Assembly (NCBI GenBank): GCA_964016885.1
Contig: OZ024760.1
Span: forward strand, 34,968,001-35,032,000
Length of the DNA: 64,000 nt
From: Eledone cirrhosa
Lineage: Eukaryota
Direction of reading: 5' to 3'
Positions 19,483 through 19,719 of this stretch are shown here, one piece after another. Under the pieces are notes generated by a model. It did no database searches and had not been told where the DNA came from. It saw nothing but the letters and a program-made list of their open reading frames with translations. The stretch's first letter is position 1, and each line of letters opens with the position of its first letter. A program made the translations under genes and the position numbers.

Positions 19483-19523
19483 CACCTACGTACGTTTCGC
19501 CCGAACAGGGCTTCTCAATGGCA
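19483..19523 (-). ncRNA. Hammerhead variant with UUGAGAA core (family G, left copy)
   Basis: TGCC-A-TTGAGAA-GCCC-TGTTC-GGGC-GAAA-CGTACG-TA-GGTG. Confidence 0.65.
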
Positions 19524-19678
19524 TACAAGTCTAGAGAGTGTTCAGTACAAAATCCAGAGTTACTCCCCTTGCTCGGTGACAATAACAACATGTTTGTTTG
19601 AATGAAAAATGAACTTTGATGTGACTATCACTTTAAAACCCCTTCTGGGTTCTGTACTGAACACTCTCTAGACTTGTA

Positions 19679-19719
19679 TGCCCTTGAAAAGCCCTGTTCG
19701 GGCGAAACGTACATAGGTG
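19679..19719 (+). ncRNA. Hammerhead variant with UUGAAAA core (family G)
   Basis: TGCC-C-TTGAAAA-GCCC-TGTTC-GGGC-GAAA-CGTACA-TA-GGTG. Confidence 0.6.

Follow-up and report, generated by a model that had tools for sequence, protein, structure and literature searches.

The two inverted arms in the window, the 64-kb stretch of Eledone cirrhosa DNA analysed here, are best read as carrying worn pseudo-LTR hammerheads of a Hydra-clade Penelope-like retroelement, with an intact U3-A8 form that likely self-cleaves as a dimer and with window copies that are likely inactive (rough probability 85%). The arms come from the insertion of one such (TA)n-targeting element, inverted and truncated at its 5' end, with one hammerhead in each arm, and the window copy is non-coding.

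The inverted locus and its parent element

The inverted repeat consists of 134-nt arms, 19425-19558 (minus strand) and 19644-19777 (plus strand), which are 93% complementary and spaced 85 nt apart. Each arm is laid out as a type I hammerhead, read outward from the repeat centre in the order stem I strand, TTGA(G/A)AA, GCCC-TGTTC-GGGC, GAAA, six bases, TA, GGTGC. A sequence-only reading of this DNA had described U3 and A8 in both arms instead of C3 and G8, together with an intact stem II and GAAA. All of these were seen in both arms, with cores TTGAGAA (minus) and TTGAAAA (plus), U3 at 19518 (minus) and 19684 (plus), and GCCC/GGGC around TGTTC. The cleavage site is UA, with H17 at 19487 and 19715 and the predicted cuts directly after these positions. 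Nine of the 134 sites differ between the arms, and three of these (positions 2.1, 7 and 16.2) fall inside the hammerhead. The features are as follows.

19264..19319, plus strand: canonical C3-G8 hammerhead from another Hydra-type family, with CTGATGA and an 8-nt palindrome
19365..19428, no strand: left (TA)n target tract, flank of the insertion
19428..19558, minus strand: left arm copy, the element's 3' end, inverted and 5'-truncated, halting at the family's short 3' end adjoining (TA)n
19482..19524, minus strand: left-arm type I hammerhead, core TTGAGAA at 19518-19512, A at 19519 where the family has C, palindrome intact
19554..19936, plus strand: right sense copy, 5'-truncated, with the end of the 3' UTR, the hammerhead and ~160 nt of 5'-UTR-type extension to (TA)n
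19678..19720, plus strand: right-arm type I hammerhead, with stem I at 19678-19683 (C2.1 at 19683), core TTGAAAA at 19684-19690 and, in 19691-19720, stem II at 19691-19703, GAAA at 19704-19707, CGTACA (G16.2A) and the stem I 3' strand at 19716-19720
19936..20079, no strand: right (TA)n target tract, flank of the insertion

The point at which the left copy halts is also the stop point of many other family copies. CCAGA at 19554-19558, the inversion junction, is common to the left and right copies, and the inversion would have arisen during reverse transcription through this 5-nt microhomology. Once inserted, the arms would have drifted neutrally.

The arm is a repeat of the 3.0-Gb genome, with 981 first-look candidates, of which 40 were scored. 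A second copy in the same divergent orientation was found 0-1150 nt away in 12 of the first 30 loci. Family copies end at two fixed, very precise points, both in (TA)n; the long 3' end, with its optional extension of ~160 nt, consists of the element's 5' UTR and ends ~55 nt ahead of the start codon. In longer copies, same-strand upstream frames encode a GIY-YIG endonuclease (PF01541, E 0.011, below the curated cutoff), and the hammerhead lies on the sense strand ~300-360 nt downstream of the endonuclease end.

Relatives of the element have a single frame comprising reverse transcriptase together with a C-terminal GIY-YIG domain. In the young relative L061 this frame is open over 928 codons, with RWK, DKT, YRDD, CxCX5C and CxxC/CxH motifs; RWK, DKT, CxCX5C and CxxC/CxH are given as diagnostics of the Hydra clade in the section of PMC8557442 that treats them. 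Two further marks of the clade, (TA)n insertion and an inverted 5'-truncated copy, were also found. Membership of the Hydra clade is assigned from the motifs and from a by-eye comparison with the published alignment. A Pfam search with the full 928-codon frame gave no match, and a protein homologue search returned 149 relatives, none with a clade label. L061 is built like the window locus, and its inverted arm is identical at 142/142 positions. The window locus is thus an extreme truncation, with a sense copy joined to an inverted copy via CCAGA between two (TA)n tracts.

The U3-A8 element lies in the (TA)n tract at the 3' end of another Hydra-type element, a decayed copy of the CTGATGA family at 17686-19365 (plus), for which the genome held 1418 first-look candidates. 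This copy has an endonuclease remnant at ~17946-18441, followed ~830 nt later by its hammerhead (at 19269), which has G at position 17 where its family has A. Elsewhere in the window, a canonical CTGATGA hammerhead with a long stem II, palindrome and UA site was found at 34839 (minus), with a Hydra-type endonuclease remnant ~1.07 kb upstream of it, at 35904-36335 (minus). At 31754-33850 (minus), the long, broken remains of a Hydra-type reverse transcriptase and endonuclease were ~43% identical to the L061 frame, and a hammerhead descriptor found no hammerhead within 1 kb downstream of them. A minimal-type CTGATGA hammerhead at 55973 (plus), with an extra A before stem II, belongs to a further repeat family (L045, L081, L085-L089). 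The window also contains two more near-perfect fold-backs, at 27367-27530 and 6457-6613, and at 42621-52023 a degenerate tandem repeat of 71 nt extends across several kilobases.

The U3-A8 core, its register and stem I

A genome search with the pattern TTGANAA-N10-22-GAAACGTACGTH gave 2369 exact matches, against 2 for the reversed-pattern control, which indicates that the motif is not a product of chance. With its UUGANAA core, the variant is missed by CUGANGA searches, as had been proposed from the window alone, and ~2400 genome copies escape such descriptors. Rfam, run over the window at E values up to 1, returned 134 matches and no hammerhead family. Its models do not cover such small motifs, since the canonical C3-G8 neighbours in the window were missed too.

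The family hammerhead has a YUGANRA core in the form of U3-A8, GAAA, a UH site in the form of UA, and stems I, II and III including G10.1-C11.1. Its 7-nt core abuts stem II, with no extra base between A9 and G10.1. We infer that U3 pairs with A8 as C3 does with G8. The U-A pair had earlier been taken as covariation of positions 3 and 8, and this held across families and failed inside the family. In the tighter family context, the search for 3/8 combinations found U3A8 1904 times, C3A8 30 times, U3G8 7 times and C3G8 not at all (0/1941), where independent single changes would give 0.11. The 3-8 pair is thus fixed, and covariation is absent inside the U3-A8 family. Across families the swap is seen 250 nt away, where the CTGATGA family has the same layout, a 7-nt core, an 8-nt palindrome and a UA site. 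C3-G8 members of the present lineage were sought in two further ways. The CTGANGA form with the family palindrome had 9 genome matches, all from other families or unrelated, and a search by the family stem I strand gave 64 matches against 34 in the control, mostly chance.

Two genome loci (L135, L136) represent a separate U3-A8 family, with a TTGAAAA core, a longer stem II, the same palindrome and a UU site; no endonuclease was found within 1.5 kb upstream of them. U3-A8 may thus have more than one origin in the Eledone cirrhosa genome.

Variation at N7 was used to fix the register. Among 107 distinct family copies, gathered with a fuzzy motif and so biased towards intact copies, N7 was G (85 copies), T (15), A (4) or C (3), in agreement with the earlier description of N7, one of the nine arm differences, as the variable core position. 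T was fixed throughout one subfamily. Position 8 was A in 106/107 copies, and across subfamilies U3-A8 was unchanged, with N7 and loop II varying. Because N7 varies between subfamilies and position 8 does not, the register is U3 U4 G5 A6 N7 A8 A9. A shifted register would keep C3-G8, reading C U U G A G A with an inserted A as in minimal Penelope hammerheads, and there would be no U3-A8 pair. It would match the published CUGANGAH consensus in length, with 8 nt from GCC to stem II (PMC4209133, in its consensus description). It would also require G5U and A6G, and among the 107 copies the base that it takes for G8 can be T (15 copies), A (4) or C (3), with T fixed in the one subfamily. The N7 variation, largely the subfamily change, rules this register out, and we give it almost no credence.

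The base before U3 was examined in the same copies. It had been described as an extra nucleotide, A or C, following stem I. In the family it is almost always C (104/107 distinct copies), with A in 42/2369 genome matches, so that the left-arm A at 19519 is a rare change. As C2.1 is able to pair with G1.1, an extra base is forced in the left arm only. The register without an extra base had the lower energy in 93/103 copies scorable both ways. Stem I would then adjoin U3 directly, through C2.1-G1.1, a C-G pair, a bulged 1.3 and 2-4 further pairs, and what was read as an 'extra nucleotide' is most probably stem I's C2.1. The extra nucleotide is therefore not supported as a family feature and is needed in the left arm alone, where the C-to-A change at 2.1 leaves the slipped register alone and the closing stem I pair is lost or shifted.

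It is unlikely, then, that the family hammerhead has one unpaired base (2a) before U3, with a stem I of GCC/GGU plus a wobble. Such a structure was favoured in 9/103 copies overall and was slightly better in the youngest subfamily (GGTGAT 3' strand; -3.3 versus -2.6 kcal/mol); it is also the sole register open to the left arm. Position 1.3, which was T in 96, C in 8 and A in 3 of the 107 copies, gave evidence in both directions. The T-to-C change of one subfamily (8 copies) would convert G-U to G-C in a stem with unpaired 2a, though it is compatible with both stem I registers, whereas A in 3 copies of one subfamily would be a mismatch. Beyond the better energy of direct C2.1-G1.1 pairing in 93/103 copies, stem I abuts position 3 in the other hammerhead families of the window, and natural insertions near C3 impaired cleavage in the cases given in PMC3088659.

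Folding, conservation and possible traces of cleavage

The stem III palindrome of the family is 8 nt long, with a duplex energy of -9.8 kcal/mol when intact, and G16.2 was kept in 98/107 distinct copies. In the right arm, G16.2 is changed to A at 19713, which breaks both the stem III pair and the palindrome; the duplex falls to -4.6 kcal/mol. The loop CGTACG, earlier reported as intact, is so in the left arm, and the right arm has CGTACA. In isolated arms, the hammerhead was not the minimum-energy structure (z -1.0 and -0.3), the core pairing instead with the stem I 3' strand. A transcript across both arms folded as a single hairpin (-225.7 kcal/mol, z -30), in which the one sense hammerhead was locked. 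The weak right-arm duplex, the lost left closing pair, the misfolding of isolated arms and the fold-back hairpin make activity of the window copies unlikely. The proposal of an active variant is thus not supported for these two copies, given the changes at 2.1 (left) and 16.2 (right) and the fold-back.

The inverted pair could nonetheless form an active ribozyme locus, for example if sense and antisense transcripts dimerised in trans. The left arm retains its core and palindrome, and the left-right palindrome duplex is still -7.2 kcal/mol. Against this, besides the changes at 2.1 and 16.2 and a fold-back of 134 bp, arm differences are as frequent inside the hammerhead as outside (3/9), and no promoter-bearing upstream unit was found in sense orientation. 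We regard an active locus as very improbable.

For the intact element, self-cleavage of the family U3-A8 core as a dimer is likely by analogy with known hammerheads. C3-G8 is a Watson-Crick pair in the active hammerhead fold (PMC3884650, for the structure discussed there), and for U3-A8 ribozymes the pertinent passage of PMC3088659 states activity in vitro. Following the model set out in parts of PMC4209133 and PMC6765202, stem III would be too short to hold within one molecule, and two hammerheads of a tandem transcript would exchange palindromes to build it. The cut would follow GUA, ~275 nt upstream of the start codon in the next unit, and would trim the element RNA.

Conservation was assessed in a set of copies selected for their endonuclease similarity, independently of the motif. 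Of 51 such copies, 38 were kept and 13 were left out, their flanks being less than 55% identical to the reference; these included the 5 copies from the youngest subfamily, in which intact hammerheads were observed. Columns with a second state in at least 3 of the 38 copies numbered 0/12 in the core, 58/104 upstream and 21/45 downstream (Fisher p 0.0003 for core versus upstream and 0.002 for core versus downstream, the columns not being independent). These alignments support a family motif conserved as if functional.

Traces of cleavage were sought at copy ends. Matches without the normal bases before the cut site numbered 33, against 1703 intact, and 30 of the 33 were read. True boundaries at the predicted cut site were found in 23/30 rows, which the merging of two tandem arrays reduced to 19; at the control anchors the figures were 11/16, 14/17 (13 after merging one locus) and 5/8. 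With unequal capture rates, the difference had p 0.018 against the three controls and 0.09 against the two upstream ones, and copy 5' ends at the predicted cut site were enriched at most ~twofold. The two tandem arrays (L176-L181, on contig C18 of G000) have a 124-nt unit that begins precisely where the family hammerhead is predicted to cut.

It is distinctly unlikely that the motif has lost its cutting activity in this lineage and is kept for another role in the terminal repeat, for instance as a promoter or a protein-binding element. Minimal Penelope hammerheads are described as very weakly active in vitro in the section of PMC4209133 on their activity. The weak enrichment of 5' ends would fit, as would the fact that inserted copies span the cut site, which means that their templates were uncut or re-joined. 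Against a loss of cutting, the conserved columns obey hammerhead rules, with an invariant core, free N7 and loop II, a palindromic stem III and a UA site. As for the role of cleavage in insertion, hammerhead mutants of an anole Penelope-like element were without effect on insertion in vitro, according to the experiments cited from PMC11167929. The most far-reaching version of a cleaving family is quite improbable: a still-amplifying Hydra-clade lineage on U3-A8, with stem I slipped in its youngest subfamily by a selected single-base 2a insertion, would be cleaving in vivo and marking the 5' ends of some copies.

Comparison with known systems

Small Penelope hammerhead variants are said to cleave as dimers (Lunse et al.), and Przybilski and Hammann reportedly described in 2007 how far hammerheads tolerate 3-8 exchanges. 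No publication naming a U3-A8 hammerhead in the Hydra clade was found by a literature search and in File S2 of PMC8557442, with Lunse et al. and Przybilski and Hammann 2007 lying outside that search; the published Hydra-clade table of PMC8557442, in the part consulted, is likewise without any U3-A8 example. There is otherwise little new, as the variant is known and the window copies are decayed. Lying beside C3-G8 sister families, the graded subfamilies form a natural test set for relating the 3-8 pair, N7 and the bulged stem I to dimer cleavage, and the same set serves the question of whether ribozymes matter for retrotransposition.

U3-A8 hammerheads in Penelope-like elements are already published. 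In the relevant parts of their paper, Cervera and De la Pena (2014) gave U3-A8 cores in Schistosoma Penelope-like elements, with about 1300 hits, and described opposite-strand hammerhead pairs 100-700 bp apart in Penelope-like elements (PMC4209133). Cercyon of Schistosoma mansoni, as presented there, resembles the present family in its U3-A8 pair, type I layout and Penelope-like terminal repeat. Both are also dispersed in more than a thousand copies, form opposite-strand pairs at distances of 100-700 bp and are predicted to act as dimers. In Cercyon, A9 and G10.1 are separated by an additional base and stem III is nearly absent, whereas in the present family the 7-nt core lacks this base and stem III is a palindrome of 8 nt; clade and host also differ. 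The extra base is missing as well in several published members, for example that of M. japonicus (PMC4209133).

Natural hammerheads compiled by Perreault et al. (2011) are alike in that C3-G8 covaries to U3-A8, such pairs being stated there to be active in vitro (PMC3088659). The insertions near C3 in the corresponding part of that paper are of two bases, come from saltern sequences and impair cleavage, whereas in the present family a single mutated copy is the only one to require an insertion.

A further close likeness is to the Hydra-clade elements of Craig et al. 2021 (PMC8557442). In the sections and files drawn on here, these share with the present lineage the RWK, DKT, CxCX5C and CxxC/CxH motifs, a C-terminal GIY-YIG domain, (TA)n targets, inverted 5'-truncated copies, and a sense-strand hammerhead near the 3' end with a palindromic stem III. 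They differ in three respects. The core is CUGANGA in all 25 Hydra families of File S2 and UUGANAA in the present lineage; the frame is longer in the present lineage (928 codons stop to stop); and the 3' extension is ~160 nt here, compared with 30-40 nt in the Penelope-like elements of that paper.
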